Shown here: one piece after another, positions 4,385-32,474 of the stretch | How positions within the stretch are numbered: the stretch's first letter is position 1 | Layout of the letters: the number at the start of each line of letters is the position of its first letter | From: a virus | DNA: 64,000 nt | Virus record (IMG/VR): IMGVR_UViG_3300020170_000001 | Span: 60,653-124,652 of that record | Strand: one strand, 5' to 3' | Notes under the pieces: generated by a model | What the model was told of the DNA's origin: nothing | Databases searched by the model: none | Seen by the model: the letters and a program-made list of their open reading frames with translations, nothing else | Program-made: the position numbers and the translations under genes

Positions 4385-5041
4385 CTAAGCGACCTTGAAG
4401 CGGATTGTTGGCGGCGTAGAGTTCGTCCCGCCGTTGACCGTGGGATACGACAACGGTGTGTTGCTACCGCTGCCGCTCTGGGTCCAATAGGTTTGCGGAG
4501 CTCCACCCTGTGGGCCGTTGGCATTCATTGCCCACGGAACGCGATAGCAGTAGGGTCCAGCCGACGCGGGCGCTACGCCAGTTGAACTTCCCGCAAACGC
4601 GAGGAAATTCCAGCCGGCGGGCACGGTCGTTGTGGTGATCGTGATCGACGTCTGGGTGGCGGATGTACCGGATGCCGACACCAGCAGTTGCGCGGGGCGA
4701 AGTGTGATGGGGTCCATGGTGTTGATGCCGACCTTCATCGCCAGCCCAGTGCCGGCTACGACATAACACCCGATGGCCGTCACCGACACCGCCGACGTGA
4801 AGTAACACGGAACATAGATGCAGTTGATGAAGGCAGAACTAGTGGACGTGTCGAAGTCAACAACGACGCGATTGTCGTACCAGTTGCCTGACACGTACGT
4901 CTGCGGATAAGGCGTTGCCGGGTTGGACCAACCGAAGGCGTAGTCGGCGGCGGAGGTCTTCGTCAAAGCGTGACTGGTGTTGCCGCCGGCGAATGCGTGG
5001 ACGGCTATAAGAGCGGGACTGACGTCACCGATGGTTGGCAC
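4385..5041 (-). CDS. Virion fibre/receptor-binding-like protein, WYDNR paralog 4
   Basis: YVSGNWYDNR...YVP...VPAGWNFLA shared with three neighbours; Ser/Thr-rich. Confidence 0.65.
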   Translation of the reverse strand: MPTIGDVSPALIAVHAFAGGNTSHALTKTSAADYAFGWSNPATPYPQTYVSGNWYDNRVVVDFDTSTSSAFINCIYVPCYFTSAVSVTAIGCYVVAGTGLAMKVGINTMDPITLRPAQLLVSASGTSATQTSITITTTTVPAGWNFLAFAGSSTGVAPASAGPYCYRVPWAMNANGPQGGAPQTYWTQSGSGSNTPLSYPTVNGGTNSTPPTIRFKVA

Positions 5042-5056
5042 GGCAGGTCTCCTCGC

Positions 5057-5710
5057 TCACGCGACTCTAAAGCTAACGAGTGGACAGTCGGGAAGCGCGA
5101 TCGCGGACGTCAGGCTCACGGTTGGATTCGCTTTCGGCTGGGCAGACGTGTTGTCCTGGAGAACCCACGTCTGCGGATTCGTCGAGATTGACGTCCCTGC
5201 TCCAAGGAATGAGCGGGCTCCTCTGGACTGAAACGTGCCAACCTGCCCGGATCCAGAGGTCCCCCACGCCAGGTAGCACCAGCCCGCGGGGAGTGCCGTA
5301 GACGTGATTGAAGCAGTCGCCGCCGCACCGCTTGTGGCGGTGATCGGCGTTGCAGCAACCAGTTGTGCGCCGGGAAGGCCGGTGGAGAGCACCGAGTTGA
5401 TACCGACGTAACACGTCGACCCGCCCAGTGACACCGAGTAGAAGCCGACCGAATTAATCGTAATTGACGACGACAGTAACACCGGCATATAAAAGCAATT
5501 GTTGGCAGTGAATCCATTCTGTTGCGTCGGCGAGGGGGCCCCCGACACGCGATTGTCATACCAACTCCCGGAGACAAAGGTGGTCTCTGGGCCGAACGGC
5601 GGATTTGACCAGTCGACATCGAAATCAGCGTCCGTGTTCTTGACCAAGACCGCCCCAGAAGCTCCGCCTGCCGGGTAGTCTTCCGCCGCCGGTACGCCAA
5701 TCGAGACCAC
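5057..5710 (-). CDS. Virion fibre/receptor-binding-like protein, WYDNR paralog 3
   Basis: PAGGASGAVLVKNTDADFDVDW, then FVSGSWYDNR...YMP...LPAGWCYLA. Confidence 0.65.
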   Translation of the reverse strand: MVSIGVPAAEDYPAGGASGAVLVKNTDADFDVDWSNPPFGPETTFVSGSWYDNRVSGAPSPTQQNGFTANNCFYMPVLLSSSITINSVGFYSVSLGGSTCYVGINSVLSTGLPGAQLVAATPITATSGAAATASITSTALPAGWCYLAWGTSGSGQVGTFQSRGARSFLGAGTSISTNPQTWVLQDNTSAQPKANPTVSLTSAIALPDCPLVSFRVA

Positions 5711-5732
5711 GCCGAACCCCCTCCTCCAGCCG

Positions 5733-6413
5733 CTATGTGACCTGAAACCAGATTACCGGCGTTACACTGTCCTTCGTTGCAGTCACCGTCGGATTTGACA
5801 CAATTGCGGAACTTGTCGAGTCGACATAGTAGGCGACGGGACTGGTATTCGCGGCTGCCGGCCCCGTCGAATTGAGCGAAAGCGGGGTCGCAAACTGTAT
5901 TGTCTGGGCTCCAGCCGGGACAATGCCGCCGTTCGCTACGATCGACAACCAATTCCACCCCGCGGGCACTGCGACGGGGGAAAAGGTGCCGGTGTAGGCA
6001 GCTAGCCCTGCCAACGTAAACGAGGTCGTCGCCAGCACCGTCCCCGGCAGCCCCGAAGAAGCCGACTGGCTGAGTCCGACCGAACCGACCGGGCCGCTGA
6101 CGCTAGTTGCCTGGTAAAAGCCCAAAGCCGTCACCTTGATCGGCGCGTGCATATAGACCGGCACATAGGTGACATAATTGGTGGTCGGGGAAAAGCTAGT
6201 TGAACTCGCCGCCGCCGGAGCGACCCGATTGTCATACCACTGACTCGCGAGGTAGGCAGCGGGAGACAGGTGGATAGCGACAGGGTCTCCCGGCACCGTC
6301 GTCCAGGACGCATGGTAGTCGTTTGTCGAGGTCTTGGTCAGAATCCGATCTGCCGTTCCACCGGGCGGCAACCCGATGGTCGGCCTGAACGATGCGCGGC
6401 CTACCGTCACCAT
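5733..6413 (-). CDS. Virion fibre/receptor-binding-like protein, WYDNR paralog 2
   Basis: PPGGTADRILTKTSTNDYHASW, then YLASQWYDNR...YVP...VPAGWNWLS. Confidence 0.65.
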   Translation of the reverse strand: MVTVGRASFRPTIGLPPGGTADRILTKTSTNDYHASWTTVPGDPVAIHLSPAAYLASQWYDNRVAPAAASSTSFSPTTNYVTYVPVYMHAPIKVTALGFYQATSVSGPVGSVGLSQSASSGLPGTVLATTSFTLAGLAAYTGTFSPVAVPAGWNWLSIVANGGIVPAGAQTIQFATPLSLNSTGPAAANTSPVAYYVDSTSSAIVSNPTVTATKDSVTPVIWFQVT

Positions 6414-6415
6414 CG

Positions 6416-7510
6416 TTAGCCCACCACCCGGTACCACACGTTCGCCGAGGCCACCAGACCCGTGGTGAAGGTCATGGACAACGGCGTTGCCGTTGCGACA
6501 AGTGCTGCGCCGGTACCCGCCTCATAGAACATGTAACTGGTCTGCGTGGCGACTGCCGACGCTTGGGTCAACGACGACAGTCCCGACTGCGGGGCAATAG
6601 TCGCGGTATTCGCGACGGTGTAAATGGAACTGGAGTTTGTGGAGTTGCACGAGAGCGCCCACCACGACCATCCCTTGGGAATCGTGCCGGAGGCCGCGAG
6701 GGTGTAGACGGTGCTGTTTGCGGTGGGCGACACGGTGCCGAAGTCGTAGATGCGCGTTCCGGGCGCGTTCGTCGCCGAGTTGGTGTAGAGGCCTATGCGA
6801 ATCGTCGCGCCTCCGGTCGGCGTCGACGACCCGGTGATGATCGCTACCGTGTCGATGACCAACGCCCGGTGGGCGAACATCGGCACGTACGAGACGCTGC
6901 TGATCGCGATTGGTGCGGAACCCGCGGTGCCGGACGACACCGATGTGAGGGTGATGTTGGACCCGGTCGGGGTCCGCCGGTCGTGCCAGTTTCCGTTGGT
7001 GTACGCCGGTGTCCATAGTGTCTGGAGGCTGTCGGTCCCGGCGCTGACGATCGCGGTGTTCTGGATCTGCCAGTTGGTGCCGTCGAACACAAAGGTCGCC
7101 GCGGCCTCGGGCGAGGTGATCACGCAGGTGGCGTCGCCGTCGATCGTGGTTCCGCCGGACCCCACAACGGTGATCGCGTTGCCGCTGACGTCGGTCTTCT
7201 TGGCCCCGACGGTGACCCCGGCGCTCGGCGACGCTGGCAATGTGACAGTAAACGCGCCACCATTGGCGTTGCAGAGGACCAGCTGACCCGAAGCGGCGGT
7301 GTAGTTGGCGGTCTTCGATGCGGTTGGCGTGAGCCCGCCGCCGCCCGAGGACGCCGTGATCCACCCGGTGTCGTAGTCGGTCCCGGAGCTCTTGGCCAGC
7401 ACCTGCCCGGTCGTGCCGCCCGTAGGCATGGCGACAAGACGCGGGTCGGTCTCCAGCGCGAGCAGAGCTCCGCCGTACGACTGCCGTTGCTGTACTTTCC
7501 GGGTGGCCAT
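6416..7510 (-). CDS. Virion fibre-like protein, WYDNR paralog 1
   Basis: PTGGTTGQVLAKSSGTDYDTGW; FTVTLPASP..KKTD domain; YTNGNWHDRR...YVP...IPKGWSWWA. Confidence 0.7.
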   Translation of the reverse strand: MATRKVQQRQSYGGALLALETDPRLVAMPTGGTTGQVLAKSSGTDYDTGWITASSGGGGLTPTASKTANYTAASGQLVLCNANGGAFTVTLPASPSAGVTVGAKKTDVSGNAITVVGSGGTTIDGDATCVITSPEAAATFVFDGTNWQIQNTAIVSAGTDSLQTLWTPAYTNGNWHDRRTPTGSNITLTSVSSGTAGSAPIAISSVSYVPMFAHRALVIDTVAIITGSSTPTGGATIRIGLYTNSATNAPGTRIYDFGTVSPTANSTVYTLAASGTIPKGWSWWALSCNSTNSSSIYTVANTATIAPQSGLSSLTQASAVATQTSYMFYEAGTGAALVATATPLSMTFTTGLVASANVWYRVVG

Positions 7511-7514
7511 CAGA

Positions 7515-8423
7515 TCACATCTTCGAAACGACGGCGTGGAACTCGTTAGTGGCCCACACCGCGTCGGGCTTGAGGGTCACCGTGTTCAGGTCAGTGTGTT
7601 CCACATACACGTCAACCTCGTCGAACGGGGAAGCGACCCGGTACACCATGACGTTCACGGCACGGGTGCCGAAGCTGTGGGTGATCGCAAAGCTAGTCGC
7701 CGCGCCGTTGCCGCAGTCCTGCTCGACCGGAGCCGTAGCGGCGGTGGTAACTCCGACGTAGATGAACGCGGCGGTAGTGGTGTTGAGAGTGAACGTATCG
7801 TTGGTCATCAGCGCGAACTTGTCGGCCTGAGTGCCCTGCAACACGATCCAGTACGAACCGACGATGGCGGTGGCGGTGGTGCTCCAGTTCTGCGCCCGAG
7901 CCATCGTCGCGCCGGTGGCGGTCCACACGTAGGGACCGTTTTGGGAGCCGGTGGTCTGTCCGGCGAGCAGGAACACGTCCCCGTTGGTGGGGGTGACTCC
8001 GTCGATCGTGGCCGGGGCGGAAGCGAGGTTGACGTTGGTGGCGGCGACCGCCCGCACTGTGCCCTTGAGGGTCTGCCCGGACGAGAGGAAGGCAATTTGA
8101 GTCTCAAGATCGATCTGGCGGACGGCGTCGTTGGACCCCTGAATCGCGGCTGCCAGGTTCGTAAGCCGCTGGCTGTTCATGCTGACCAGGGTGGTGGGGG
8201 CTTGCAGCTGGTCGATACGGCTAGTGTGAACCTGCGTGTCGAAGTCGCTGATGGTCGCTGCAAGCTGGGTGCCGGTGTGGTTGGCGCGGGAGATGGAGAA
8301 CGTCTGCACGCTCTCGATGTCGACCTTACGAGCTGCATCATTGCTCGCCGCTGTGGGTGCCCCCAGGTTGATTACCTTGAGGCCGTTCATGTCCTTATTG
8401 GAAGCGTCTTTACGGGCGGTCAT
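7515..8423 (-). CDS. Virion structural/fibre protein (paralog of 12066 and 28550)
   Basis: NLGAP..DA, RANHTGTQ, GQT..QNGPY and C-terminal ITHSFGTRAV. Confidence 0.7.
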   Translation of the reverse strand: MTARKDASNKDMNGLKVINLGAPTAASNDAARKVDIESVQTFSISRANHTGTQLAATISDFDTQVHTSRIDQLQAPTTLVSMNSQRLTNLAAAIQGSNDAVRQIDLETQIAFLSSGQTLKGTVRAVAATNVNLASAPATIDGVTPTNGDVFLLAGQTTGSQNGPYVWTATGATMARAQNWSTTATAIVGSYWIVLQGTQADKFALMTNDTFTLNTTTAAFIYVGVTTAATAPVEQDCGNGAATSFAITHSFGTRAVNVMVYRVASPFDEVDVYVEHTDLNTVTLKPDAVWATNEFHAVVSKM

Positions 8424-8445
8424 GGTGCAGTTCCTCCGACAATTG

Positions 8446-9276
8446 TCAGGACAAGTAGGCGGTTCCGGCGATGCTGATATCGAAGGACAACCGCAACGAC
8501 TGCCCCGGGGTTAGGTATTGAACTCCGCCACCGTCGATGGTGTAACCGTCGTCGGAGATGACTGTCAGTCCGGCGGGATCAAAACCCAACCCGTGGGTGA
8601 TTTGCCAGACCGTTGCCGGAGTGCTCTGATCATGGCGATACCCGGCGGCAGCATTCGCACCCGGCGGGCCGGTGGCTCCCTGCTGGACGAGCAGCCCCCA
8701 CGTCGCAGTGGTGGTATTGACGACGGGAGCGGTGTTGGTGCTCGCCAAGATCGCGACATAAGCGCCGCCGCTGAAGAAGACGACGTCGTTGATGGCGTAG
8801 GTGACGCCGCTGTTCCAGGTGCTGCGGTAGGTGAAGTTCTTCGCACCGGGGTCGAAGATCACCGTCGACTCGACGCGCCAGTTGGTGCCGTCGAAGACGA
8901 GGACGGCTCCGGACTGGGCTTGCAGCAGAGTCAGGGTGGCGTCGCCGTCGACGGTTGCGCCGCTGGAGCCGACGACGGTGACCAGGTTGAGGCTGGCGTC
9001 GACCTTCTTGATCGCCACGGAGGTGTTCGTGGCCGGCGTGGCCGGCAGCGTGATGGTCAGCGCGGCGCTGCTGGCGTCGGCAAGGATGAAGTCGCCAACG
9101 GCCGCGGTCGCGGCGACGTTGACGGAGCGCACAGCGAGGGTCTGACCGCCGCCGCCTTCCAGCACGGCGACTCGGGCGGAGAGTGCGGCGTCGGCGGAGT
9201 CTACATAGCCCTTCCGGACTGCCTGCGAGGCGGTCGTCGCCGCCGGGATATCCAGGGCCGTCCCGAGGAACTTCAT
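8446..9276 (-). CDS. Modular virion fibre protein
   Basis: ITLPATP..IKKVD domain (as in 6416), W...TY..NDVV module and C-terminal HDQ..WQITHGLG..GTAYLS. Confidence 0.7.
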   Translation of the reverse strand: MKFLGTALDIPAATTASQAVRKGYVDSADAALSARVAVLEGGGGQTLAVRSVNVAATAAVGDFILADASSAALTITLPATPATNTSVAIKKVDASLNLVTVVGSSGATVDGDATLTLLQAQSGAVLVFDGTNWRVESTVIFDPGAKNFTYRSTWNSGVTYAINDVVFFSGGAYVAILASTNTAPVVNTTTATWGLLVQQGATGPPGANAAAGYRHDQSTPATVWQITHGLGFDPAGLTVISDDGYTIDGGGVQYLTPGQSLRLSFDISIAGTAYLS

Positions 9277-9325
9277 CAGCCAGTCACCGCCCTTTCGCGT
9301 TGACCTATCGGTCCGAGCAGGACCG

Positions 9326-9526
9326 TCAAGGGGTCGCCGGGAACCGGGTGAACCGCGACACCGCCGGCCAGCTCGTCGAGCCGGTCGACATCACTCGCGC
9401 CGCGACCTCCTTAGTGGGGCCCGCCTTGATCATCGCCGCGCTCAGCGGCATCGTCTGTGCAAGGAAACGCACCAGGTACGGGAACGTCGGCTGGGCCCAC
9501 AGCCCTGTCGAGGTCAGCGCCGCCAT
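9326..9526 (-). CDS. Small hypothetical protein (66 aa)
   Basis: ATG after GGAG; fills the gap in the operon. Confidence 0.55.
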   Translation of the reverse strand: MAALTSTGLWAQPTFPYLVRFLAQTMPLSAAMIKAGPTKEVAARVMSTGSTSWPAVSRFTRFPATP

Positions 9527-9530
9527 CGCG

Positions 9531-11588
9531 TCACACTCCTGAGTCGACGAAGAAGCCGTAGGTGGAGGCCGGGCCGGCGAACCGTACGTAGGTTTTGCCT
9601 CCGGCGGTGACCGTGTCGCCGGCCACCGAGGCCACCAGGCTGCACACCGTCCCGTACAACAGCCCCCGGATGGCGTCCGGCCAGTTGATGACCGTGCGGG
9701 CGGAGCCAATCGGCACCCGCGACAGGCTGCACGGGTTGCCGTACAACGGCGCGGTGGTCGAGGTCGGCGTGTACGCCCCCGGGCTAATGGCGTTGGTGCC
9801 GCCCAAGTTGTTGTAGCAGTAACCGTTATGGATGCGGGCCTCGAAGTTCAAGAGCACCGACAACGTCTGCAGCGGCTCCCGGGTGAACCCGCCGACCTGC
9901 AGCAGGCTGTTGCTACCGATGGCCCAGGCATTGGTCTGGGCGGTCGGGAACTGCGCGGCCACCAGCGGCTGGCCCGTCGTGCCCGCCGGGAGCAAGTCCT
10001 CGTACAGGCCTGCGTAGAACCCCATCTCGGAAGCCGCCTTCACCCCGAGGATCACCCGGTCCGGGGTCGCGCTGAACCAGTAGGTGAACGGCGACCCGGC
10101 CGCGAGCGTAACTGAGGCTGGGCCCGCATGAGCCTGATCCGCGAGGGTAGCGACGTCCGGGTTGAGGTAGGTGCCGGTGACCGGAATCCCGCCCAGACCG
10201 CGCCCGCCGAAGTTGCTGGCCTTGTGTGTGCTCGTGTCGTAGGCTTCGGCGACCTGATAGAAGATCGTGTTGGCTGCTTCCGAGGCGCGGCGCAGGATCA
10301 GGTACCAGTCCGTGCCAGACGTATTCGACGCGCCGGGACTCTTGTAGACATCCGCGCAGGGGCTGGCCGACGTGCCGGGCATGTTCCGCGAGGTCCAGGT
10401 GATTCCATCCGACGAGGTCGCGGTGACGGTGGAGGTGCTGGTCGCGACGAGCTGGCCGCCCGCGTAGACCGGCTGATTCCAGCTGATGCTCACCGGCAGG
10501 GTCCGGGCGGTCCAGGTGATCCCGTCCGGCGAGGACAGAGCGACCGTGCCCGTGGTGTTGCACACCACCCAGACGCTGCCGGTGTAGACCGGCGGGTACC
10601 AGTTGCCGCTGACGGGCAGGGTTCGCTGGGTCCAGGTGATCCCGTCAGTAGAAGTCACCGCGACCGTGCCCGAAGCGGTGACCACCACCCAGATGCCGCC
10701 GGCATAGACCGGCGGTTGCCAGCCTGAGGCGGTGGGCAGGGTCCGCGAGGTCCAGGTAATGCCGTCCGGCGAGGTGTTAATCGTGGCAGAAGCGGAGTTG
10801 TTCATCAGAACCCACAGGTTGCTGCCGTTATGGACCGGCAAGTACCAGGCCATGCCAGACGTGGCCAGGGTCCGCTGTGTCCAGGTCACCCCGTCGGGCG
10901 AGGTCGCGGCGACGGTGGAGGCTGCGGTGTTGATCGCGATATACACGCTGCCGTTGTAGGCCAACTGCAGCCAGCTGGTACTGACTGGCAGGGTCCGCGC
11001 GGTCCAGGTGATCCCGTCGGACGAGGTCAGCACGTTGGTGCCCGCGTTGTTGATCGACAGGAACTGCCCGCCCGCGTAAATCGGCTGAATCCAGGTTGTG
11101 CTGACCGGCAGGGTCCGCTGGGTCCAGGTCACCCCGTCCGGCGAGCTCAAGGCGACGTTGCCCACGGTGTTGAATACGACCCAGATGCCGCCGCCGTACA
11201 CCGGCAGCCGCCAGGTGCCCGTGGTGGGTAGAGTCCGCTGGGTCCAGGTGATCCCGTCAGTCGAGGTCGCGGCGACTGTTCCTGAGGTGTTGAGCACCAG
11301 CCAGGTGCCGCCGCCATAGACCGCCTGCATCCAGAAGGATGCGGGGGTGGGAAGGCTCCGCTGGGTCCAGGTGAACCCGTCGGGCGAGGTCGCCACCGAG
11401 GTCGATGAGTTGATGGTCGAGACCACATACAGGTTGTTGGCGTACGTGGGCATCTGCCAGTTCGGGCCGGCGGGGCTGCTGAAGGTCTCCACGAAGGTGA
11501 GCCCGGCCGGGACCAGGGCCGTGTTCAGCGCCGCCATCAGATCCTTGGCAGGCAGGGCGCTGTTGATCGACGCCGTCGAATAACTCAT
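9531..11588 (-). CDS. Asp-box/BNR repeat beta-propeller virion protein
   Basis: Start MSYSTAS at an ATGA overlap; nine S(P/T/S)DG(I/V/F)TWTxR repeats. Confidence 0.8.
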   Translation of the reverse strand: MSYSTASINSALPAKDLMAALNTALVPAGLTFVETFSSPAGPNWQMPTYANNLYVVSTINSSTSVATSPDGFTWTQRSLPTPASFWMQAVYGGGTWLVLNTSGTVAATSTDGITWTQRTLPTTGTWRLPVYGGGIWVVFNTVGNVALSSPDGVTWTQRTLPVSTTWIQPIYAGGQFLSINNAGTNVLTSSDGITWTARTLPVSTSWLQLAYNGSVYIAINTAASTVAATSPDGVTWTQRTLATSGMAWYLPVHNGSNLWVLMNNSASATINTSPDGITWTSRTLPTASGWQPPVYAGGIWVVVTASGTVAVTSTDGITWTQRTLPVSGNWYPPVYTGSVWVVCNTTGTVALSSPDGITWTARTLPVSISWNQPVYAGGQLVATSTSTVTATSSDGITWTSRNMPGTSASPCADVYKSPGASNTSGTDWYLILRRASEAANTIFYQVAEAYDTSTHKASNFGGRGLGGIPVTGTYLNPDVATLADQAHAGPASVTLAAGSPFTYWFSATPDRVILGVKAASEMGFYAGLYEDLLPAGTTGQPLVAAQFPTAQTNAWAIGSNSLLQVGGFTREPLQTLSVLLNFEARIHNGYCYNNLGGTNAISPGAYTPTSTTAPLYGNPCSLSRVPIGSARTVINWPDAIRGLLYGTVCSLVASVAGDTVTAGGKTYVRFAGPASTYGFFVDSGV
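10381..11390 (-). repeat. Nine ~41-aa intragenic tandem repeats (Asp-box)
   Basis: Recurrent DNA motif GTCCAGGT...CCCGTC on the + strand at ~120-130-bp spacing. Confidence 0.9.
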
Positions 11589-12046
11589 CCGAACTTCTCC
11601 ACTCGCAGATTCGACAGCGTGAATACCCGGACGCTTGGTCCGGTGTTGCGGATCCCGACGAACAGGTCCTGCCCGGCGGCGTCGTTTTCGAGATACCAGG
11701 GCACGGGGTTGGAGTAGCTGGCGGTGGTGATCCCGATCGCCTGCAGCCACAAGGTGCCCGAGGTGTTGCCGGCTCCGCGGACTTCCAGGTCGAAGGAGCC
11801 GGCCGCGTCTACCGTGACCGTGATGAGGCTGACCAGGCCTCGCGCGGCGATGGACGGCACGGTGTAGTAGGTGAAGGCCGTCTGGCTGCCGGACTGGGTG
11901 CCCAGCGTCACGGCTGTCGCGGTGACCTTGCTCGGCCCGACGCCAACAGCCCACTGGTAGTCGAAGTCGACGGTGGACTTCTTCTGCAGAAACCACCCGG
12001 TCGTGCCGCCAGGCGGCACGCGAGAACCCGATCCCACTGACGGCAT
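11585..12046 (-). CDS. Virion fibre-associated protein
   Basis: PPGGTTGWFLQKKSTVDFDYQW motif shared with the fibre paralogs. Confidence 0.7.
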   Translation of the reverse strand: MPSVGSGSRVPPGGTTGWFLQKKSTVDFDYQWAVGVGPSKVTATAVTLGTQSGSQTAFTYYTVPSIAARGLVSLITVTVDAAGSFDLEVRGAGNTSGTLWLQAIGITTASYSNPVPWYLENDAAGQDLFVGIRNTGPSVRVFTLSNLRVEKFG

Positions 12047-12065
12047 GTGCGTCTCCTTGCCGAGA

Positions 12066-13610
12066 TCAGCCGACGATGACGCAGCGGTATTGGCCGGAGG
12101 TCGGCGCGGCCCCGAAGACCAGGGCGACGTTGTTGGCGTCGGTGCGCTGGACTTCGGCGTAGACGGTGTCGTAGGGGGCGGCGGCGGAGTACACCTCGAC
12201 GTGCACGTCGCGGGTGTTCAGGTTGTGGTTGATCGTGATGGTGGTGGCGACGCCGTCGCCGAGCGACGCGGCGAACCGGCGGGCGACGACCGCGGTGTCG
12301 ATGGCGATGTTGGCACCGACCACGATGCCCAGACCGGCAACGGCCTTGACACCGGGCACGCCGACCGCGAGGCCGCCGGACGGGTCGAGAACCGTGCTGA
12401 CCCCGGCTGCGGCGACCGCGATGCCGGAGTTCGGCTTGGGCACGACGGCCAGGCCGGTTGCGCTGGTCGCGAGACCGCCGGCCGGGTCGGTGGTGATGCC
12501 GACGCCGGTGACGTCGACGTCGAGGCCGTCGTTGGGCCGCAGCACCACGCTGACGCCGGTGGCGTCGACGCCGATGCCGGTGTTCGGCTTGGGCACCACA
12601 CCGACCCCGGCGGCGTCGACCGATAGGCCGCCGGTCGGGCGGGGCACCACGTACAGGCCGGTCGCGTCGGTGATCAGGCCGCTGATCGCGGGCAGTTTCG
12701 CCGCGATGCCGCTTACGCCGACCTGCAGACCTCCGGTGCCGGTGGCGACCGCCACAACGCCGGTCGCGCCGACGGTGACACCGTTGCCGGGCAGGACCTG
12801 CAAGCCGGTGGCATCAACGGTGAGGCCCTTGTTCGGGGCCAGCACCGTCTGCACGCCGGTGGCGTCGACGGCGAGGCCGGCGCTCGGCTTGATGGTGACG
12901 CCGGCACCGTTGGCGTCGGTGTCGAGGCCGTAGTTGGGGCGCGGGACGAACTTGAGGCCGTTGGTGTCCTCGAAGAGTCCGGCGTTCGCGACGAGCTTGA
13001 CCGCGACGCCGTTGGTCCCGACGTTCAGGCCTCCGGTGGGATCGGCGATCACGCCGATGCCGGAGCCGGTCACGGCGACGCCGCTGTTCGGGGCCGGGAC
13101 CGCGGTGACGACGTGGTTGGTGATGTCGACGCCGTTGCCGGCGGTGTAGATCGGCGAGGTGCCAGCGTTTAGCAGCGCCCACTGAATCGCCGTGGTGCCG
13201 ATGCTGATCGGCCCATCGGTGATCAGCACGTAGGTGTGGTTGCCGCTGGCGGTGCCCTCGGAGACGGTGACGGCCGTGCCGGGCCGCAGCTCGGCGTTGG
13301 TGTCGGCGTCAGCGGAGCGGGTCAGCGCGGTGCCGGTGAAGTCGTAGATGCCGTTCTCGATGGGGTTGGTCTGCCCCATGAGCAGGACGCGGTCGTTGGC
13401 GGCGAGGGTGACCCCGTCGATGGCCACGCCGGGCGCGCCGACGGTGACGTTGGCGGACGCTGCGACCCGGACGGCGTCCTTCCAGATCAGACCAGTCGCG
13501 ATGTTGTCGACATACTGCTTGGTAACCGCGTCGGTGCTGACGGCCGGAGCGCCCAGGTTGGTGATGCGGTTGAGCTTGAGGTCGAGAAGCTGGGTATAGG
13601 TAATTGCCAT
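12066..13610 (-). CDS. Head/tail fibre protein with GLxVDATGV shaft repeats
   Basis: NLGAP...DAVTKQYVD N-terminus, many ~18-aa Gly repeats and C-terminal INHNLNTRDV. Confidence 0.75.
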   Translation of the reverse strand: MAITYTQLLDLKLNRITNLGAPAVSTDAVTKQYVDNIATGLIWKDAVRVAASANVTVGAPGVAIDGVTLAANDRVLLMGQTNPIENGIYDFTGTALTRSADADTNAELRPGTAVTVSEGTASGNHTYVLITDGPISIGTTAIQWALLNAGTSPIYTAGNGVDITNHVVTAVPAPNSGVAVTGSGIGVIADPTGGLNVGTNGVAVKLVANAGLFEDTNGLKFVPRPNYGLDTDANGAGVTIKPSAGLAVDATGVQTVLAPNKGLTVDATGLQVLPGNGVTVGATGVVAVATGTGGLQVGVSGIAAKLPAISGLITDATGLYVVPRPTGGLSVDAAGVGVVPKPNTGIGVDATGVSVVLRPNDGLDVDVTGVGITTDPAGGLATSATGLAVVPKPNSGIAVAAAGVSTVLDPSGGLAVGVPGVKAVAGLGIVVGANIAIDTAVVARRFAASLGDGVATTITINHNLNTRDVHVEVYSAAAPYDTVYAEVQRTDANNVALVFGAAPTSGQYRCVIVG

Positions 13611-13622
13611 TTCGGGCGTCTC

Positions 13623-14090
13623 CTAGGGCCGCAGGTATGCCGTGCCGGTATATGGCGCGCTATGCACAACCACAGTCGTCTGGTCACTCGGGTGATGGAT
13701 TTCTGCGATCATTTCCTGACCGCCGCTGTCCAAAAGGATCACGTTCGGGATCAGGCTCATGTGGTGGTCGATGACCCACTGCGCAGCCGGAACCGTCTGA
13801 TGGTGGGTGAAGGAGATGCCCCCGCCGACAGCAACGCTCTGAATCTCGTCTTCGAGTTGCCGGGCGGTGTTTTCCCACTCGTATTGGAATCCGCGTCCGC
13901 CGCCTGCGGTCGGATCGGTGACATCGAGATCGGTCGTGCGGATCAGCGCGGCCCCGCGGATCTCCTTCTCCTCCGCTGCTGTCGAGAGCAGTGGGAAGGG
14001 AGCGCGCTGGGTCTTACGCAGCAATGGCCGGCGGGCACGATTCGACTGCCGCTCGTCGGACGGCTGGGAGGTGCTGTCGGCCCCTGACAC
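13623..14090 (-). CDS. Virion protein with C-terminal HHQ..WVIDH..GTAYL domain
   Basis: C-terminal domain paralogous to those of 8446 and 29707. Confidence 0.65.
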   Translation of the reverse strand: MSGADSTSQPSDERQSNRARRPLLRKTQRAPFPLLSTAAEEKEIRGAALIRTTDLDVTDPTAGGGRGFQYEWENTARQLEDEIQSVAVGGGISFTHHQTVPAAQWVIDHHMSLIPNVILLDSGGQEMIAEIHHPSDQTTVVVHSAPYTGTAYLRP

Positions 14091-14125
14091 GACCTACTAC
14101 ATCGGAAGGAGTCCGTGAGGACGGG

Positions 14126-14344
14126 CTATTCCTTGTTGCCGCTCAGCAGCGCAATGACCTCACGCAGCGACGCGATCTGTGCGTCGTGCAGCCGTAGTTG
14201 GGTTTGCATCTGATCCTGCACCGACCGCAGAACGTCGATCTGATCGACCAACGATTTTCTGGTCTGGGTGATGTCCCTTTCGGCGCTCAGGTCTTGCAGG
14301 TTGCTCAGCACCTCTGACAGCCTTTCCGCCGGTTCAGCGGCCAC
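14126..14344 (-). CDS. Small coiled-coil protein
   Basis: 72 aa with a heptad pattern; overlaps the upstream stop. Confidence 0.65.
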   Translation of the reverse strand: MAAEPAERLSEVLSNLQDLSAERDITQTRKSLVDQIDVLRSVQDQMQTQLRLHDAQIASLREVIALLSGNKE

Positions 14345-14648
14345 GACGTTTCGCCTCCGCCCGGTGCATCGCTGTGCGCAGCAGGAACCAGAATCCGAGA
14401 ACGAACCACACTACCGCGATGGCTTGAATGGTGTGATTGAGAACCATCCACTCCGAGTGTTGGAACCCGAAGGCCATCGACAGGTGAGTGATGGCGCAGG
14501 TGACGAAGAAGAACGAGCCGGCGAGCCGGACGGATCGCGAGAGCGGCAGGTAGCGCAGCACCGTGAATGGGACCACGCAGTAGCCGGCGACGATGACCAG
14601 ATTGGAGACGACGTTAAGTACCACCCAGTGCGGATCTCCCGGGATCAT
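14334..14648 (-). CDS. 3-TM protein resembling the ethylene-receptor (ETR1) N-terminal domain
   Basis: SNLVIVAGYCVVP and FFFVTCAITHL align in register with ETR1 SDFFIAIAYFSIP and AFIVLCGATHL. Confidence 0.65.
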   Translation of the reverse strand: MIPGDPHWVVLNVVSNLVIVAGYCVVPFTVLRYLPLSRSVRLAGSFFFVTCAITHLSMAFGFQHSEWMVLNHTIQAIAVVWFVLGFWFLLRTAMHRAEAKRRGR

Positions 14649-14650
14649 CG

Positions 14651-15169
14651 TCAGCGGCCCTGCAGAGCGGGGCCGCCCGGGTAGAGGCGCTGCATGCATT
14701 CCAGGAATTTCTCGCCCTTGGGATCGGTCGACAACGGGTTGGTACGCGCGCAGTAGAACCCGACCAGGTTGTACTGCTTGACCTGATCCAGGAGTTGGTT
14801 CTGCAGGATGGCGTTCCGCTTGCCGCACTCACCGGTCGAATTCACACAGTCCAACAGCAGGGAGTTGAGCCTGCTGACTTGTTCCTCCTGCTTCTGCGTC
14901 GCCGAAATGTTAACCGCGTTAACAATCGCGAGCGTCAGCAGAATGACCATCGCGCCGCCCACGAGGTAGGTGAGCCACCGGGTCTGGCGGTTGTTTTTCT
15001 CCAGCACGTCGATCTTCCGATCGCGGGCCTCGGTCTCTCGGCGCACGTGCTCCACTAGCGCCACCATGGTCTTGTTGGATTCGTGGTTCGCCGCAACAAG
15101 TTCCTCGACCGCGAGCGCACTGTGCAGGCGGCTGGCCTTCTCGTCGGCTGTCTCGCCCAGACCGGTCAT
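14651..15169 (-). CDS. Single-TM membrane protein with Cys-containing ectodomain (lysis-cassette-like)
   Basis: Coiled coil, then TM WLTYLVGGAMVILLTLAIV, then DCVNSTGEC. Confidence 0.7.
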   Translation of the reverse strand: MTGLGETADEKASRLHSALAVEELVAANHESNKTMVALVEHVRRETEARDRKIDVLEKNNRQTRWLTYLVGGAMVILLTLAIVNAVNISATQKQEEQVSRLNSLLLDCVNSTGECGKRNAILQNQLLDQVKQYNLVGFYCARTNPLSTDPKGEKFLECMQRLYPGGPALQGR

Positions 15170-15315
15170 CGCTCCACGCCCTTCAACTCATCCCGGAGTC
15201 GCCTGATGAGCTCCTCCTGCCGTTGCAGAATCCGGTCGTGTTCCTGAACGGCGCGCTGCAACTCCGCGAGAACGTCCTCAGTGTCTGTCTCAACACGACG
15301 CTCAGTGGCCGCCAT
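15166..15315 (-). CDS. Small coiled-coil protein
   Basis: MAATERR start after GAGGGGG. Confidence 0.55.
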   Translation of the reverse strand: MAATERRVETDTEDVLAELQRAVQEHDRILQRQEELIRRLRDELKGVER

Positions 15316-15706
15316 CGCGATCGCCCCCTCCAGGCGGGCCGACTTCCGCTGCACGTCCACGGCGAGGACCGCTGGGTGGATTGCCCTTATCCTGACGGAG
15401 GATGCTGTCACGTATTTTCATTTCGGTAATGAGTTGGATCGCCTCTTCCAGAACGTCGGCTACCTGCTTGTGCAGCAGGGCCGCTTCGACCTGCTTCGGC
15501 AGCAACTCGTTGCGAATGAATTCGTTCAGCTCCTTGGCTTGTTGCGCGGCCTGGTCGCTTTTCTCGCGTTCCCGAGCGATGGACCCACGGGTATACATGA
15601 TCATCAGGGCGGCGAAGATGCCCAGGACCCCGTACTGCAGGAGCGCGCCGACCGGATCTGTGGCGCTCGGGGAACTGGCCAGAACCAGGTCCTCGATGCG
15701 CAGCAT
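15302..15706 (-). CDS. Putative holin-like membrane protein
   Basis: N-terminal TM LLQYGVLGIFAALMIMY followed by a coiled coil. Confidence 0.5.
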   Translation of the reverse strand: MLRIEDLVLASSPSATDPVGALLQYGVLGIFAALMIMYTRGSIAREREKSDQAAQQAKELNEFIRNELLPKQVEAALLHKQVADVLEEAIQLITEMKIRDSILRQDKGNPPSGPRRGRAAEVGPPGGGDRDGGH

Positions 15707-15735
15707 GACAATCCCTATCGGATCGCAGAATAGGC

Positions 15736-15769
15736 GCAGCCTCCGCCCACTCGGGAGGGCGGAGGCTGC
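15736..15769 (-). terminator. Hairpin terminator after the capsid gene
   Basis: Perfect 13-bp stem GCAGCCTCCGCCC/GGGCGGAGGCTGC. Confidence 0.7.
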
Positions 15770-15784
15770 ACGGCATGGCCCGAT

Positions 15785-16786
15785 TTACGGCACGGTCACG
15801 TCAGCGACGAAGATCATCTGCTCGGGCCGGGTGATGACCGGCATGATGTTCCACTCCAGCAGGTACTGCCGGGCGGACGGGTCCTTGTCGATCCAGCTCT
15901 TGGAGAACTTTCCGGTGAAGTTGTCCGGGGCCTCTTCGTCGGCGGTCGGACCGACGTACATTTCGATCGGCCGCTGGTCGGTGTAGTTGCCCATGTAGAG
16001 CGCGTTGTCCGGAACGAACAGGGTGTTGTTGCCGGCGTCGTCGTCGTAGATCGTTTCGATGGTGTTCCAGTTCATGCCCATGAAGCCCGGCAGCGTCCCG
16101 CTGGCGAAGTACTGGTCCTTCATCCGGTCGGACATCAGGATCGAGGCGTTCGCGCCGTGGGAGGCGAACGAGTCGAAGATGTACGCCATGGTCAGTTCGG
16201 TGACGTAGCTGTCCTTGGCCTCGACCCGGCCGTCGCGGCGGATGAGGCGCTTGAAGGCGCGGATGTCGCCGACGATCTGCTGCGGCGTCGCGGTGTTCCA
16301 GCCGACCGTGACGGTGGGCTTGTGCGAGGCCGGGAATTGATAGTCGACGTTGGCCTGCACGTCGGGGAAGTCGTAGGTGATGCTGCCCTTCAGGGCCGCC
16401 CACAGCAGGAACTCGCCGAAGTTGTCGAACCGCTGGTTGAGGTCGTTGACCTCGCGGAGCACCGCCTGCTCGGCGTTGGTCTGGGCGAGCTGGCCGGGCT
16501 GGCGCAGCCAGTGCAGGGTGGTCGGCGAGAAGACCTTCTTCTCGCGCAGGTAGACGAACGCGGCGCTGGCCTGCGAACGGCCGAGCCGGGGCACGATGTG
16601 TGCCTCGCTGTTGGGCACGTTCGGCTTCGCGACCATGCGGGAGCCCTTGATGACATCCCAGGTGACCGAGGGGAACGGCCACGGGGTCTGCGGAACCTGG
16701 CTGAGCATCGTCAGGGTTTCCGGAGTGGTGAATTTCTCGACCACGCCCCGAAGGACCGTGGGTTCGAGAAGCGAAATCTGAGGCAC
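15785..16786 (-). CDS. Major capsid protein (lambda gpE-like)
   Basis: 333 aa with strong codon bias; KFSKSWIDKDPS..PVITRPE C-terminus; follows the protease and decoration genes. Confidence 0.85.
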   Translation of the reverse strand: MPQISLLEPTVLRGVVEKFTTPETLTMLSQVPQTPWPFPSVTWDVIKGSRMVAKPNVPNSEAHIVPRLGRSQASAAFVYLREKKVFSPTTLHWLRQPGQLAQTNAEQAVLREVNDLNQRFDNFGEFLLWAALKGSITYDFPDVQANVDYQFPASHKPTVTVGWNTATPQQIVGDIRAFKRLIRRDGRVEAKDSYVTELTMAYIFDSFASHGANASILMSDRMKDQYFASGTLPGFMGMNWNTIETIYDDDAGNNTLFVPDNALYMGNYTDQRPIEMYVGPTADEEAPDNFTGKFSKSWIDKDPSARQYLLEWNIMPVITRPEQMIFVADVTVP

Positions 16787-18937: not shown

Positions 18938-19786
18938 TCAGGTCTTCACCAACTCGACCTGACATCGGCAGTTCGGGTGCCGGGGCGGTGCGAGGAGGTT
19001 CCGCCAGACCGGCCGGTAGTCCTTTTCGGAGACGGTGGCGTTGTGGTCGAACTGCGCGTTGATGCCGACCATCGTGCCGTCCAGCGCCGCGCACATGCCG
19101 CAGGGCGTGATCGAGGTGACGACCCAACGCTTCATTAGCCCGGGGATGCCGATGCGGGACTGGAATTCGCTGTAGATCGCCTGCTGCGCGTCGGTGGCTC
19201 CCTGCTGGACCGCAGTGCCTGCGGCAGCTGCGGCACGGTTGGCCAGCCGAGCCCCAGCCATTGTCACGGCTTGCTTGATGGCCAACAGGCGGGCCGACTG
19301 GGCATCCGGTCCTTGGATGCCGTCGAAGGCGGCGGCGATCGCGTTCTGCAGGTCGGTCTGGGCGTGACCGAACATGGTGTCTACGTCGCGCAGGATCACA
19401 TCGATCGTGTCGCCCAGCTCCGGCAGCACGCTGGGTACGTCGTAGCCCTCGTGCTGCAGGTCGGCGGTGAGCTTGATGAGGGCGACTTGCGCGGCTGCCG
19501 CGTAGCCCGCCTGGATGCTGGCGGCGACACTCTCCCGGGCCGCAGCGAGGTTGTGCGTGATGGCTTGGCTAAGGCTGGCCAGGCTCAGCAGCCCGACACC
19601 GGTGATGACCGAGGCGGGCGCAGTGCTGGCGGTGACCACGGCCACGTCGGCGATGCCCTGCAGCGCGGCCTGGATGTCGTCGTCGACCTCCTGCCGGACG
19701 CGCGTTTCGACGGCGATCAGAGCGAGGCCGAGAGTTGCTCCCGCGATGATCTTGCCGGTGTCACCCTGGTCGGCGGGCTGAGTCAC
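18938..19786 (-). CDS. MuF-like head morphogenesis protein
   Basis: KRW...CGMC..LDG...PPRHPNCRC. Confidence 0.85.
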   Translation of the reverse strand: MTQPADQGDTGKIIAGATLGLALIAVETRVRQEVDDDIQAALQGIADVAVVTASTAPASVITGVGLLSLASLSQAITHNLAAARESVAASIQAGYAAAAQVALIKLTADLQHEGYDVPSVLPELGDTIDVILRDVDTMFGHAQTDLQNAIAAAFDGIQGPDAQSARLLAIKQAVTMAGARLANRAAAAAGTAVQQGATDAQQAIYSEFQSRIGIPGLMKRWVVTSITPCGMCAALDGTMVGINAQFDHNATVSEKDYRPVWRNLLAPPRHPNCRCQVELVKT

Positions 19787-21102
19787 TGCCGACCGAGCCG
19801 GGCGTTGATCAGCGGCAGGTACGTCGGTTCACGCTCGATCGTGACGCAGTTGAACCCTTCCAGCTGGCAGGCGTGGGCGGTGGTACCCGACCCGGCGAAC
19901 GGGTCCAGCACGGTACCGCCAGGCGGTGACACGAGCTTCACCAGCCAGCGCATGAGTTCCAACGGCTTGACGGTGGGGTGCGAGACACCATCGACCGTGA
20001 GGCGTTCCTTGCTACTGGCCTTGGCCTGGTAGCGGAAGGTCGGAAAGAAGCGTGACGCACCGCCCTCGACATCGAACCGCTCAATGAGCCCGTCCTGACC
20101 GCCGTGCCCGGTAATGGAGACACCGCCCGCGCCGCGCTGAGCGCGGCGGTGCCCGGCGCGGCGGATTCCGGAGTCCTCATCCAGGCTGGTGACGGCGCAG
20201 CCGGGGGCGCAGCTGCCGTTGCAGTCCGGAGTGTGGCTGAGGACGACGTTGGCGGGCCAGCGGCCTTGCGTGTGTTCTTGCGTCCTCGTGACGCCGTTGG
20301 TGTACGGACGGTCCCAGCCGCCGGTCTCGTCAACTTGGTGTGCAGCCCGGCCCCCTCTGCCGCCGACGGCGCTACCGGGGTTCGCGCGGCAGGCATCGAT
20401 GTTGAGCGCGCCGGTGCCGTGGGTCAGCACGTTGCTGGCGACGGTCCCGGTCAGCGGCTTGCGGGCGACCACGATGGGCTCCGAGGCGGGTTTGAGGGCC
20501 GTCCCCCACCCGGCCCACAGGGCGGCATCCTCGGTGGCAGGTGCGGTCAAAGGCAGCGCACTTGCGGTGCCGAGCGGACCAGACATTGATCCGGAGACAG
20601 ATGATCCGCCGCCGTGTCGATGGTGCACCCCAATAACCGGGCGTACGACCCCGGCGGCTTTGTCGATGGCCTTGGACACGTCCATGGATTTGGGGAAGCC
20701 GGATCCGTAGAGCCAGGTGATGGAGTCGCGGATCTCGAAGCCGGCGTCCTCGATGCCACAGGCCAGTCGGTGGTGGGTGCGGGTGCCGCCGAACGCGAGC
20801 AGGTGCCCGCCGGGTTTGAGCACGCGCAGGCAGGCGGCAGCCCATTGCTGGGTCCATTGCTGGTACAGGCTTCCGGCCGGGTATTCCGGCGAGGACCGGG
20901 AGGTCCGGCCGTACACCGAGTCACGGCCCACCTCAGCGGGGTTCAGCGAGCGCCGGAACCCGTCGGCCCCGTCCCAGTCCTTGCCCATGAATTCCAGGCC
21001 GTAGGGCGGGTCGGTAACGATGGCGTCGATCGAGCAGGCGTCGAGTGCGGTGAGTTCCTCGATCGCGTCGCCGGAGATGACCTGGATGTCGGGCATCGTC
21101 AC
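19783..21102 (-). CDS. N6-adenine/N4-cytosine DNA methyltransferase (beta class)
   Basis: VTDPPY motif IV precedes HPTVKP and LDPFAGSGTT motif I. Confidence 0.92.
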   Translation of the reverse strand: MTMPDIQVISGDAIEELTALDACSIDAIVTDPPYGLEFMGKDWDGADGFRRSLNPAEVGRDSVYGRTSRSSPEYPAGSLYQQWTQQWAAACLRVLKPGGHLLAFGGTRTHHRLACGIEDAGFEIRDSITWLYGSGFPKSMDVSKAIDKAAGVVRPVIGVHHRHGGGSSVSGSMSGPLGTASALPLTAPATEDAALWAGWGTALKPASEPIVVARKPLTGTVASNVLTHGTGALNIDACRANPGSAVGGRGGRAAHQVDETGGWDRPYTNGVTRTQEHTQGRWPANVVLSHTPDCNGSCAPGCAVTSLDEDSGIRRAGHRRAQRGAGGVSITGHGGQDGLIERFDVEGGASRFFPTFRYQAKASSKERLTVDGVSHPTVKPLELMRWLVKLVSPPGGTVLDPFAGSGTTAHACQLEGFNCVTIEREPTYLPLINARLGRQ

Positions 21103-28199: not shown

Positions 28200-28550
28200 C
28201 TATCCCATCGCGTTGATCAGGTAGCGGCCCCACGTGTCGTGGGGTGCGTAGGCGACGATGTCGAAGCCGACGCCGGGCACCAGATTCGTCGAATACGCGG
28301 TGATCCCCTCGATAGCGGCATCGAGTGGATCGTGGTCGGCTGTCGGTGTGCCGGCAATCGAGCAGACAATCGTCGAGTTCGCGCTGACCCAGGACGCGGC
28401 GACGGTGACAGTGGCGATGTCACTCTCCCCGCCGTTCGCATGCCCGAAGTCGACGGTGGCCTGCGCCTTTCGGACGAGACCACCGTCGTCTTCTAATACG
28501 ACCTTCTTGCCGTTGAATTGCGGCCAGGACGCGAATCGACGGAACGACAT
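28200..28550 (-). CDS. Hypothetical virion-cluster protein
   Basis: 116 aa, overlapping operon gene. Confidence 0.65.
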   Translation of the reverse strand: MSFRRFASWPQFNGKKVVLEDDGGLVRKAQATVDFGHANGGESDIATVTVAASWVSANSTIVCSIAGTPTADHDPLDAAIEGITAYSTNLVPGVGFDIVAYAPHDTWGRYLINAMG

Positions 28551-29695
28551 CAGCCCAGGACGACGACCCGCAGGCTGCCGGCCTGCATGGAGACGTCGGG
28601 GTAGACGGCGATGGTGTTCGCGGCGGTGGTCGCCCAGTCGAGGTCGATGACCCGGCTGTCGTCGGTCGTCTTGAAGGACACGGTGACATCGGTGGTGTCG
28701 AGGCCGTGGGTGATCGTGTAGGTGACTCCGGCGGAGATCGCGCCGAGGTCTCCGGCGTACTTGGTGACCGCGCCGAGGTTGGCGCGGGCGTCTAGGGCGG
28801 TGGTGGCACCGGTTCCACCGTTGGCGACCGAGACGGGCGCGTCGAGGGAGAAGGTGGTGCCGTTGATCAGCAGCCCGTTGCCGGCGGTGTAGGTCTGGCC
28901 GCCGATGGCGAAGATCCGCCAGTCCTGCGTCCAGCTGCCGGGCACGCCGCCGCTGGTCGTCTCCTGCATGTACTGGTAGTTCGCGCTGGTGCCCTCGGCG
29001 ACGGCGACCACGGCACCGTCGACAATGTCGCCTGCGCTGTCGGCGTCATCGGCGAGCGTGGCGGCCGTCGAGGGGCCGTTCCAGACGTAGATGCCGTTCT
29101 GGGTGCCGTTGTTCTGGGCGCGGGCGAGGAACCGGTCGCCGGTGTTCATGGCGATGCCGTCGAGGTTCGCGCCGGGCGTGCTGATGTTGACGTTGCCCTG
29201 GGTGACGACCCGGACCGGGTCCTTGACGCTGATGCCGGCGCGCAGGTTGTCGGCGTAGGCCTTGTTGACGCCGTCGCCGGGGGCGACCGGGGCGGCGAGG
29301 TTGGTGAGCCGCACGCCGTTGACGTCGACGTTGTTGGTCGGGGCCGACAGCTGGTCCAGGCGCGAGGTGCGGACCTGGGTGTCGAAGTTCGAGATGGTGC
29401 TGGCCGGCTGGGTGCCGGTGTGGTTCGAGCGGGCCAGCGGGTCGACGGCCAGTTTGGACAGCTGAATTCCGGCTGTGCTGGAGATCAGGTTGTCGTTGAT
29501 GAACCCGGCCGGGATGCTCGTTCCGTCAGAGTTGACCCACTTGGTGCCGTCCCACCACTTCACCTTCGCCGGGTTGGTGGACGTGTCGGTCCAGAACTGG
29601 CCGTATGCCGGGTCGGCCGGTGCAACCGCAGAGGCCTCGACCCGGAACTGCCGGACCGGGATCTGCATGAAATCCTGGGCACTGCCGTAACGCAT
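28550..29695 (-). CDS. Virion fibre protein (paralog of 7515 and 12066)
   Basis: RSNHTGTQ, DTQVRTSRLDQL, QNGIY and ITHGLDTTDV. Confidence 0.72.
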   Translation of the reverse strand: MRYGSAQDFMQIPVRQFRVEASAVAPADPAYGQFWTDTSTNPAKVKWWDGTKWVNSDGTSIPAGFINDNLISSTAGIQLSKLAVDPLARSNHTGTQPASTISNFDTQVRTSRLDQLSAPTNNVDVNGVRLTNLAAPVAPGDGVNKAYADNLRAGISVKDPVRVVTQGNVNISTPGANLDGIAMNTGDRFLARAQNNGTQNGIYVWNGPSTAATLADDADSAGDIVDGAVVAVAEGTSANYQYMQETTSGGVPGSWTQDWRIFAIGGQTYTAGNGLLINGTTFSLDAPVSVANGGTGATTALDARANLGAVTKYAGDLGAISAGVTYTITHGLDTTDVTVSFKTTDDSRVIDLDWATTAANTIAVYPDVSMQAGSLRVVVLG

Positions 29696-32247: not shown

Positions 32248-32474
32248 AGGGTTTCCCACGAGCCGACTTCACGCTTTTGGACGTCGAGATGAGCCAGCAC
32301 GGCAGGAAGCTTGATTTCGATGGCGGCATAGAAGGCAAGCACAGACTCAAGCGCTCCCTCGTAGACCACCCAGTCACAGTCGATGAGGTGGATACAGACG
32401 GTGCCGTCGTCAGAGACGTGGCTCTCGTCGGGTCCGTCGAGGGCGCGGGCGAGGATGCGGTACTCGCGGGTCAT
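32244..32474 (-). CDS. Hypothetical protein
   Basis: MTREYRIL at an ATGA overlap. Confidence 0.55.
   Translation of the reverse strand: MTREYRILARALDGPDESHVSDDGTVCIHLIDCDWVVYEGALESVLAFYAAIEIKLPAVLAHLDVQKREVGSWETL

Follow-up and report, generated by a model that had tools for sequence, protein, structure and literature searches.

What would the membrane domain of an ethylene receptor do in a phage, encoded as a free-standing protein among late genes? To our knowledge, studies of the ethylene-binding domain (EBD) have so far treated it only as the input module of receptors that carry a fused output, and the structure of its transmembrane part is unsolved. The question is raised by a gene of a large, uncultured, soil-type phage, known from an IMG/VR record of 124,652 bp with an estimated completeness of 93%. 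The window analyzed here is the 64,000-nucleotide stretch covering bases 60653-124652 of that record, and positions below are those of the window unless stated otherwise.

Relationship of the phage protein to ETR1_N

The gene lies on the minus strand at 14334-14648, running from an ATG at 14648-14646 to a stop codon at 14336-14334, and encodes a protein of 104 amino acids (P0001). The TGA of the upstream gene, which encodes a 172-amino-acid protein, occupies 14653-14651 and ends two bases before this ATG; a listed GTG-started ORF of 164 amino acids is a 5' extension of the same gene that overlaps the preceding one. The length of 104 residues fits that of close relatives (99-127 amino acids), the nearest of which is 97% identical and has the same length. 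The codons of the gene have a GC3 of 0.80 and a GC2 of 0.43, and dN/dS against the four closest homologues is 0.11-0.21, from which we conclude that the ORF is genuine and evolves under purifying selection. An AlphaFold2 model built on a 113-sequence alignment (pLDDT 93.6) has helices at residues 6-25, 38-59 and 66-103, the three transmembrane segments in roughly 100 residues that characterize ETR1_N (Pfam PF25487). The reading frame and the three-transmembrane architecture proposed in a first-pass annotation of this DNA thus hold. Because the first loop is basic and the C-terminal tail very basic, the predicted topology is N-out/C-in. The conserved polar residues are N16, Y23, P27, C51, T54, H55, H72 and Q75. 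A homodimer prediction for two copies of P0001 with the 113-sequence alignment scored 0.25, against a mark of 0.42, and weighs in neither direction on dimer formation.

As a single sequence, P0001 matches PF25487 with 21.8 bits (E 2.4e-4) over model positions 2-95 of 97, short of the gathering threshold of 27 bits and hence formally outside the family; a PF25487 scan of the phage's own genome gives it 21 bits. A match to Got1, a eukaryotic Golgi family, ties with this score at 22.1 bits (cut-off 24.6). We gathered 59 close relatives (56-97% identity) and 59 representatives of a library clustered at 50%. PF25487 was matched at E<=0.01 by 38 of the 60 sequences in the close set and by 14 of 60 in the diverse one; the best E was 5.4e-7. 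A Got1/Sft2 identity was rejected, given the sub-threshold score and a drop in matches from 26/60 in the close set to just 1/60 in the diverse set.

A profile of the 113 phage-family relatives (A4) was aligned by hhalign with one of 31 genuine bacterial ETR1_N domains (A5), which score 49-143 bits to PF25487. These domains come from scans of two phyla, with ETR1_N above the cut-off in 26/401 genomes of a sample labelled Proteobacteria and in 4/401 Actinomycetota genomes. The two match with a probability of 94.5% (E 7.7e-8, score 46.2), compared with scores of 14.4 and 13.0 and probabilities of 0.7% and 0.4% when either alignment was reversed. In helix 1, S15-N16 falls on the receptor S-D, Y23 on Y and P27 on P, whose ETR1 counterparts we take to be S24, Y32 and P36 beside the Asp; in helix 2, C51 falls on the invariant C and T54-H55 on T-H. 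The confident stretch consists of helices 1 and 2 alone, and helix 3 is aligned at low confidence. The gapless helix-1 alignment and the C-x3-H match that had been proposed against ETR1 are borne out by these columns, the test being against the 31-domain bacterial profile and not Arabidopsis ETR1 itself. In the other direction, an HMM of the phage family retrieves bacterial ETR1_N ORFs, such as one in L182 at E 1.5e-6.

Structure-based searches gave further matches in one collection. The ESM Atlas clusters nearest to P0001 consist of proteins of 107-138 amino acids, carry the ETR1_N label on 37-64% of their members and have Uroviricota as their commonest taxon; the structural TM between P0001 and plant and bacterial ETR1_N receptors is 0.70-0.75. 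In the PDB, the best sequence match was 7qhm_J (E 0.031), and Foldseek with the P0001 model returned no match at E<=0.001; no solved structure of an ETR1 transmembrane domain is known to us, which would explain the blank. The BFVD structure search likewise gave no match at E<=0.001, its best being at E 0.07, and a ValentiniPuff 'holin' appeared at E 0.31.

Could the resemblance be due to chance, with P0001 a generic membrane or holin protein of phages that has three transmembrane segments and no kinship with ETR1_N? The Pfam score is below threshold and shared with Got1, hydrophobic helices inflate such scores, and one of 60 relatives weakly matches Phage_holin_2 (E 0.0062). These points are outweighed by the gap between the true and reversed profile alignments, by the exact coincidence of the motif columns, by the recurrence of ETR1_N matches in diverse relatives where the Got1 match disappears, and by the independent feature and structure matches in the ESM Atlas, so that we hold a chance resemblance to be very improbable. 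P0001 is, in our judgment, very probably homologous to the ETR1_N domain, and its profile matches mark it as a probable phage-specific, output-less and divergent member of the ETR1_N superfamily.

The likeness to known receptors has clear bounds. Like the EBDs of Arabidopsis ETR1, Synechocystis SynEtr1 and Azospirillum AzoEtr1, P0001 has three transmembrane helices in about 100 amino acids, and in common with the bacterial domains it has the columns S-x...Y...P in helix 1 and C-x2-T-H in helix 2. It differs in having C-A in the helix-2 motif where the bacterial set has an invariant C-G, in a loop between helices 1 and 2 that is five residues shorter, and in two substitutions, Asn for the EBD Asp and, in a low-confidence part of the alignment, His for a conserved Lys. 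ETR1, SynEtr1 and AzoEtr1 carry GAF, PAS or kinase output, whereas the 104 residues of P0001 leave no cytoplasmic output fusion of any such kind.

This stand-alone architecture, already asserted from the first inspection, extends to the relatives, which are 92-176 amino acids long with a single exception of 364 amino acids (P0111). Longer fused forms were sought at 638-2000 and 257-2000 amino acids and none was found, a result that carries little weight. In P0111 and in an ORF of 358 amino acids in L197 (5983-7059 of that locus), further transmembrane segments follow the domain, and the tail is long and either charged or coiled-coil; both proteins may be natural fusions of the ETR1_N-like domain with its partner genes. 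Cellular ETR1_N matches, by comparison, sit in open frames of 401-1253 amino acids (phylum sample G406) and of 357 and 736 amino acids (Actinomycetota).

The sources of the relatives are IMG/VR and contigs of metagenomes. A search for relatives in 185,579 species genomes yielded 29 pattern matches, none of which was confirmed. Queries with six family members by tblastn against 50,697 GenBank phage records gave no match, with the proviso that the low-complexity filter may hide transmembrane proteins, and megablast of the region against GenBank phages also gave none. Among the sources searched, members of the family turned up in DNA of phages or metagenomes and nowhere else. ORFs of 171-249 amino acids in five Actinomycetota loci (L155-L158 and L161) weakly match both the bacterial ETR1_N and the phage-family profiles, and may represent another short ETR1_N-like group in that phylum. 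We found no paper tying the ethylene-binding domain or PF25487 to phages, and the set of 1,221 EBDs in PMC10266040 may contain stand-alone or viral entries. Automatic databases already tag some phage clusters as ETR1_N, so this is not the first sighting.

The putative metal site and the Asp to Asn change

In ethylene receptors, the Cys/His pair of helix 2 (Cys65 and His69 in ETR1) coordinates Cu(I). The corresponding pair in P0001, C51 and H55, falls on columns of the bacterial profile with C in 31/31 and H in 29/31 domains. Its conservation among phage homologs had been named beforehand as one of two points on which the receptor-like reading would turn, and the pair is present in 60/60 close and 40/55 diverse relatives, and in 98/113 relatives overall. 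Cys and/or His is missing from 15 of the 55 diverse relatives, and 12 of these 15 lack both, as expected if the two residues belong to a single site. P0001 may bind copper.

The helix-1 Asp of the receptors (ETR1 Asp25) is replaced by Asn16 in P0001, as the first-pass annotation had stated. The change is a family trait, with N at this column in 94/113 relatives and D in a single one, as opposed to D in 28/31 bacterial domains. The further claim that Asp25 is needed for ethylene binding was too strong. According to PMC10266040, the ETR1 D25N receptor is functional with lower affinity, holding metal in vivo and signaling; the same paper gives Asp in 93.55% and a natural Asn in 3.67% of 1,221 EBDs. 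The loss of ethylene affinity in ETR1 D25N is about 100-fold according to PMC11971883, and an isolated EBD, residues 1-130 of AzoEtr1, binds ethylene according to PMC11819568. ETR1 D25N and P0001 share Asn at the Asp25 position, but the D25N proteins are full-length receptors with Lys91 intact, and in P0001 the partner residue is changed too.

That partner is the helix-3 Lys91 with which Asp25 pairs in ETR1, as described in PMC10266040. Where the hhalign alignment extends into helix 3 at low confidence, H72 of P0001 falls on the conserved Lys column (K in 26/31 bacterial domains). N16 and H72 occur together in 93/113 relatives, a count of the kind that kinship among the sequences inflates. Where they vary, the two positions switch jointly, to A, S or G with D in nine sequences, to H with R in two and to C with E in two, and this joint change supports a contact between positions 16 and 72. 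The covariation echoes, by analogy, the Asp25-Lys91 coupling described for ETR1 in PMC10266040. It appears that the receptor pair of Asp in helix 1 and Lys in helix 3 has been replaced by a co-varying Asn16-His72 pair. In the AlphaFold2 model, N16, C51, H55, H72 and Q75 are each 4-10 residues away from the outer end of their helix, and because all five are near these ends they could form one buried polar site.

A late membrane gene set and the question of lysis

Read along the minus strand, the gene order is capsid, 134-amino-acid protein, small coiled-coil ORF, 172-amino-acid transmembrane protein, ETR1_N-like gene, 72-amino-acid coiled-coil ORF and fibre-like genes. The membrane gene set begins 79 bp downstream of the major capsid gene (15785-16786, minus strand). 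Its first member (15302-15706) encodes a 134-amino-acid protein with one N-terminal transmembrane segment (residues ~19-37) and a coiled-coil tail. It is followed by a small coiled-coil ORF (15166-15411), listed at 81 amino acids and probably 49 from an internal ATG at 15315, and by the gene for the 172-amino-acid protein (14651-15169), which has an N-terminal coiled-coil-like part, one transmembrane segment (~68-86) and a C-terminal part with four Cys. A soluble coiled-coil ORF of 72 amino acids (14126-14344) overlaps the 3' end of the ETR1_N-like gene, and ORFs of 155 and 514 amino acids, the latter fibre or head-decoration-like, follow at 12066-14090; all are on the minus strand. The first impression of a small membrane-gene setting was therefore correct.

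This arrangement is conserved in related phage DNA. The exact gene set of the window, with the small coiled-coil and 172-amino-acid genes, was found again in L007, L008, L011 and L012; the 72-amino-acid ORF is weakly kept in L012, and the 155- and 514-amino-acid ORFs follow the membrane genes in the same four loci and in L017. Six loci include a capsid homologue; in each of them the ETR1_N-like gene comes directly downstream of the capsid gene, inverted in L002. No terminator-like site was found on the minus strand between 13500 and 17100, and the ETR1_N-like gene is presumably transcribed with the late structural genes. The GC content of the membrane gene set (14001-16000) is 0.618, compared with 0.686 and 0.644 in its flanks.

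Several other features of the window are of note. A large minus-strand ORF (9531-11582) contains about a dozen tandem Asp-box-like 'S/T-x-D-G-x-T-W-T' repeats with weak Pfam matches to SpuA_C and DUF6242, which suggests a beta-propeller or BNR-like protein. Paralogous phrog_2647 'head decoration' or fibre-like genes (12066-13610 and 28550-29695, both minus) flank the head module. Between the portal and MuF-like genes, a minus-strand ORF of 439 amino acids with a DPPY motif (19783-21102) looks, judged by its translation, like an N6/N4 DNA methyltransferase within the structural operon. A sliding-clamp-like processivity factor (40991-42181, minus) and a clamp loader (32471-33694, minus) are also encoded, as is a single tRNA-Met (49485-49558, minus).

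A relative of the phage is Microbacterium phage Magritte, whose capsid, major tail and portal proteins are 64%, 62% and 47% identical to those of the phage studied here. From the capsid and major tail identities, the host is probably actinobacterial. Magritte has no ETR1_N-like gene, and the gene is therefore dispensable for this type of phage. In Magritte the head-tail genes come soon after the capsid gene, whereas in the window 11.4 kb lies between; relative to Magritte, the region 4385-15706 is an insert of about 11.4 kb holding the membrane gene set and some ten ORFs, mostly without Pfam matches and several fibre-like.

A position within a variable insertion is what one might expect of a superinfection exclusion gene or another membrane moron, which would keep out rival phages or modify the envelope and play no part in lysis. 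The lower GC content of the cassette would fit such an origin, as would a weak PHROG match to a 'moron ... membrane protein' family (E 0.0073). However, PADLOC and NCBIfam gave no match for the cassette or the partner proteins, the gene lies inside the late operon and runs in the same direction, and its rates of conservation across lineages are capsid-like, unlike those of typical fast-turnover exclusion genes. We regard this explanation as quite improbable.

In other lineages, the ETR1_N-like gene comes first in a tightly packed triad, before genes for a four-transmembrane protein of about 180 amino acids and, third, a coiled-coil protein with an N-terminal transmembrane segment. The four-transmembrane partner has no Pfam or PHROG match, and its ESM Atlas score of 0.89 came with no family. 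It is present in 11/30 related loci and the third gene in 10/30, many loci being too short to judge. Neither family is detectable in the window, where the 134-amino-acid protein has the architecture of the third gene with no detectable sequence similarity to it. The set of late genes for small membrane and coiled-coil proteins therefore varies, and the ETR1_N-like domain is what stays constant in it.

The first-pass annotation had called this set a membrane/lysis cassette and named synteny with holins in other phages as a check. Such synteny exists in some distant relatives and is not seen in the window. After the triad, a phrog_9752 holin follows in L003 (E 3.5e-30) and L196 (E 1.7e-29), and phrog_9752 homologues follow in L025 and, more weakly, in L019; this amounts to 4/30 loci, again with many too short to judge. 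The module comes after tail genes in L003 and L020, and lysis genes of actinophages are usually placed after tail genes. In the window, the neighbours of the ETR1_N-like gene have no holin or lysin profile. Within the phage genome, no phrog_9752-like holin, no homologue of the Magritte endolysin and no member of the four lysin Pfam families sought was found. The sole endolysin-like ORF found (259 amino acids, at 13608-14387 of the genome) lies about 60 kb away and outside the window; its C-terminal part alone matches endolysin PHROGs and peptidoglycan-binding-type NCBIfam models, and a crude scan showed no transmembrane ORF beside it.

P0001 itself resembles class I phage holins and actinophage holin-like proteins in being small, with three transmembrane segments and a basic C-terminal tail, and in being encoded in the orientation of the late structural genes. 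It differs from them in matching no holin family in Pfam or PHROG, in lying far from the one endolysin-like ORF found, and in carrying invariant polar residues of the type found in a ligand site. Moreover, where a phrog_9752-type holin is present (L003, L196, L025 and L019), it is a separate gene, one to three genes from the ETR1_N-like gene.

Given a conserved set of late membrane genes that sometimes stands beside a holin, a role in the late membrane or in lysis is likelier than hormone sensing, and P0001 is more likely not a hormone receptor with a signaling output. The most economical reading is that P0001 is a membrane protein with a metal site that serves a late module, active in the membrane or in lysis, as a subunit or modulator. 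It would work in the host membrane with the small transmembrane and coiled-coil proteins encoded around it, as an accessory of that module, and its likeliest role would be to modulate the formation of holes or channels, or to take part in it as a subunit, in dependence on a metal, redox state or a small molecule. The contact with these partners and the part in lysis are both inferred. We consider that P0001 is an output-less ETR1_N relative acting in such a module with a probability approaching, and somewhat short of, one half.

What a stand-alone ethylene-receptor domain may do

One rival reading is that P0001 is a kinase-less sensor, which would relay the presence of a ligand (ethylene, another alkene or gas, copper, or a redox state) by way of a separately encoded partner, coiled-coil or membrane protein, to some regulator of the phage or the host, with an effect on gene expression or on the lysis-lysogeny decision and not on the membrane itself. 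The ligand-site residues are kept and coiled-coil partners are always nearby. The genome also encodes a large serine recombinase or integrase (53671-55302, plus strand; phrog_95, E 7e-62), which suggests a temperate lifestyle, and two relatives (L195 and L196) are in records classed as proviruses by IMG/VR. Nevertheless, the neighbours showed no domain of the DNA-binding, kinase or receiver type, and the gene is located in late structural operons and not in a regulatory region. A sensor of this kind is unlikely, though still a serious rival.

A second proposal is suggested by the rice receptors OsERS1/2, presented in PMC13261662 as 'hormone-receptor-type ion channels'; they have the same transmembrane fold as P0001 and offer a route by which it could act without an output domain. 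Oligomers of three-helix subunits would then depolarize the membrane late in infection as a cation channel or viroporin, independently of Cys and His. In that paper, OsERS1 is reported to conduct mono- and divalent cations, a C65S form to keep its activity, and ethylene to raise the currents. P0001 is also small and holin-like, with its strongly basic tail, and among its BFVD neighbours are proteins annotated as phage holins and as membrane proteins, at weak E values of 0.07-1. On the other hand, the channel activity of OsERS1/2, a recent claim made for full-length plant receptors, needs a disulphide dimer through the N-terminal Cys4/Cys6 (PMC13261662), and P0001 has no N-terminal Cys. The strong conservation of Cys and His in the phage family argues that the site matters, and no holin family gave a significant structural or profile match. 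A channel independent of the Cys/His site is therefore, in our estimate, about as unlikely as the sensor.

The idea raised in the first-pass annotation that P0001 is a decoy fares worst. As a dominant-negative partner it would disable host ETR1_N receptors, or it might instead sequester copper for the phage. Ethylene receptors do form homo- and hetero-oligomers, and etr1-1-type receptors without copper are dominant, according to PMC10266040; the retained Cys/His site would suit either version. Yet ETR1_N was found above the cut-off in only 4/401 sampled Actinomycetota genomes, and in none of three Microbacterium, one Streptomyces and one Arthrobacter genome. Since the domain is rare in the phylum of the probable host, to which the Magritte-like capsid and major tail point, a decoy is unlikely; no copper-handling gene was found near the ETR1_N-like gene. 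Both versions are extremely improbable.

A bolder form of the late-module reading is that the phage captured the core of a copper-based gas receptor and uses it as a ligand-gated switch, responsive to ethylene, another small unsaturated or gaseous molecule, copper or redox state, on a multi-protein membrane module that times host lysis. We consider this decidedly unlikely.

Whatever its function, the gene marks a conserved, unannotated late membrane module, made up of the ETR1_N-like protein, the four-transmembrane protein, the coiled-coil protein with its N-terminal transmembrane segment and sometimes a holin, in large phages of actinobacterial type. A compact and highly conserved stand-alone version of about 100 amino acids could be tractable for structural work and for studies of copper and ligand binding, and would reveal the functions open to the domain when no kinase is attached. 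If the ligand-gated lysis switch were true, it would be the first case of a gasoreceptor-type sensor in control of a step of a phage life cycle, and a natural minimal system in which an ethylene-binding domain acts without any kinase.
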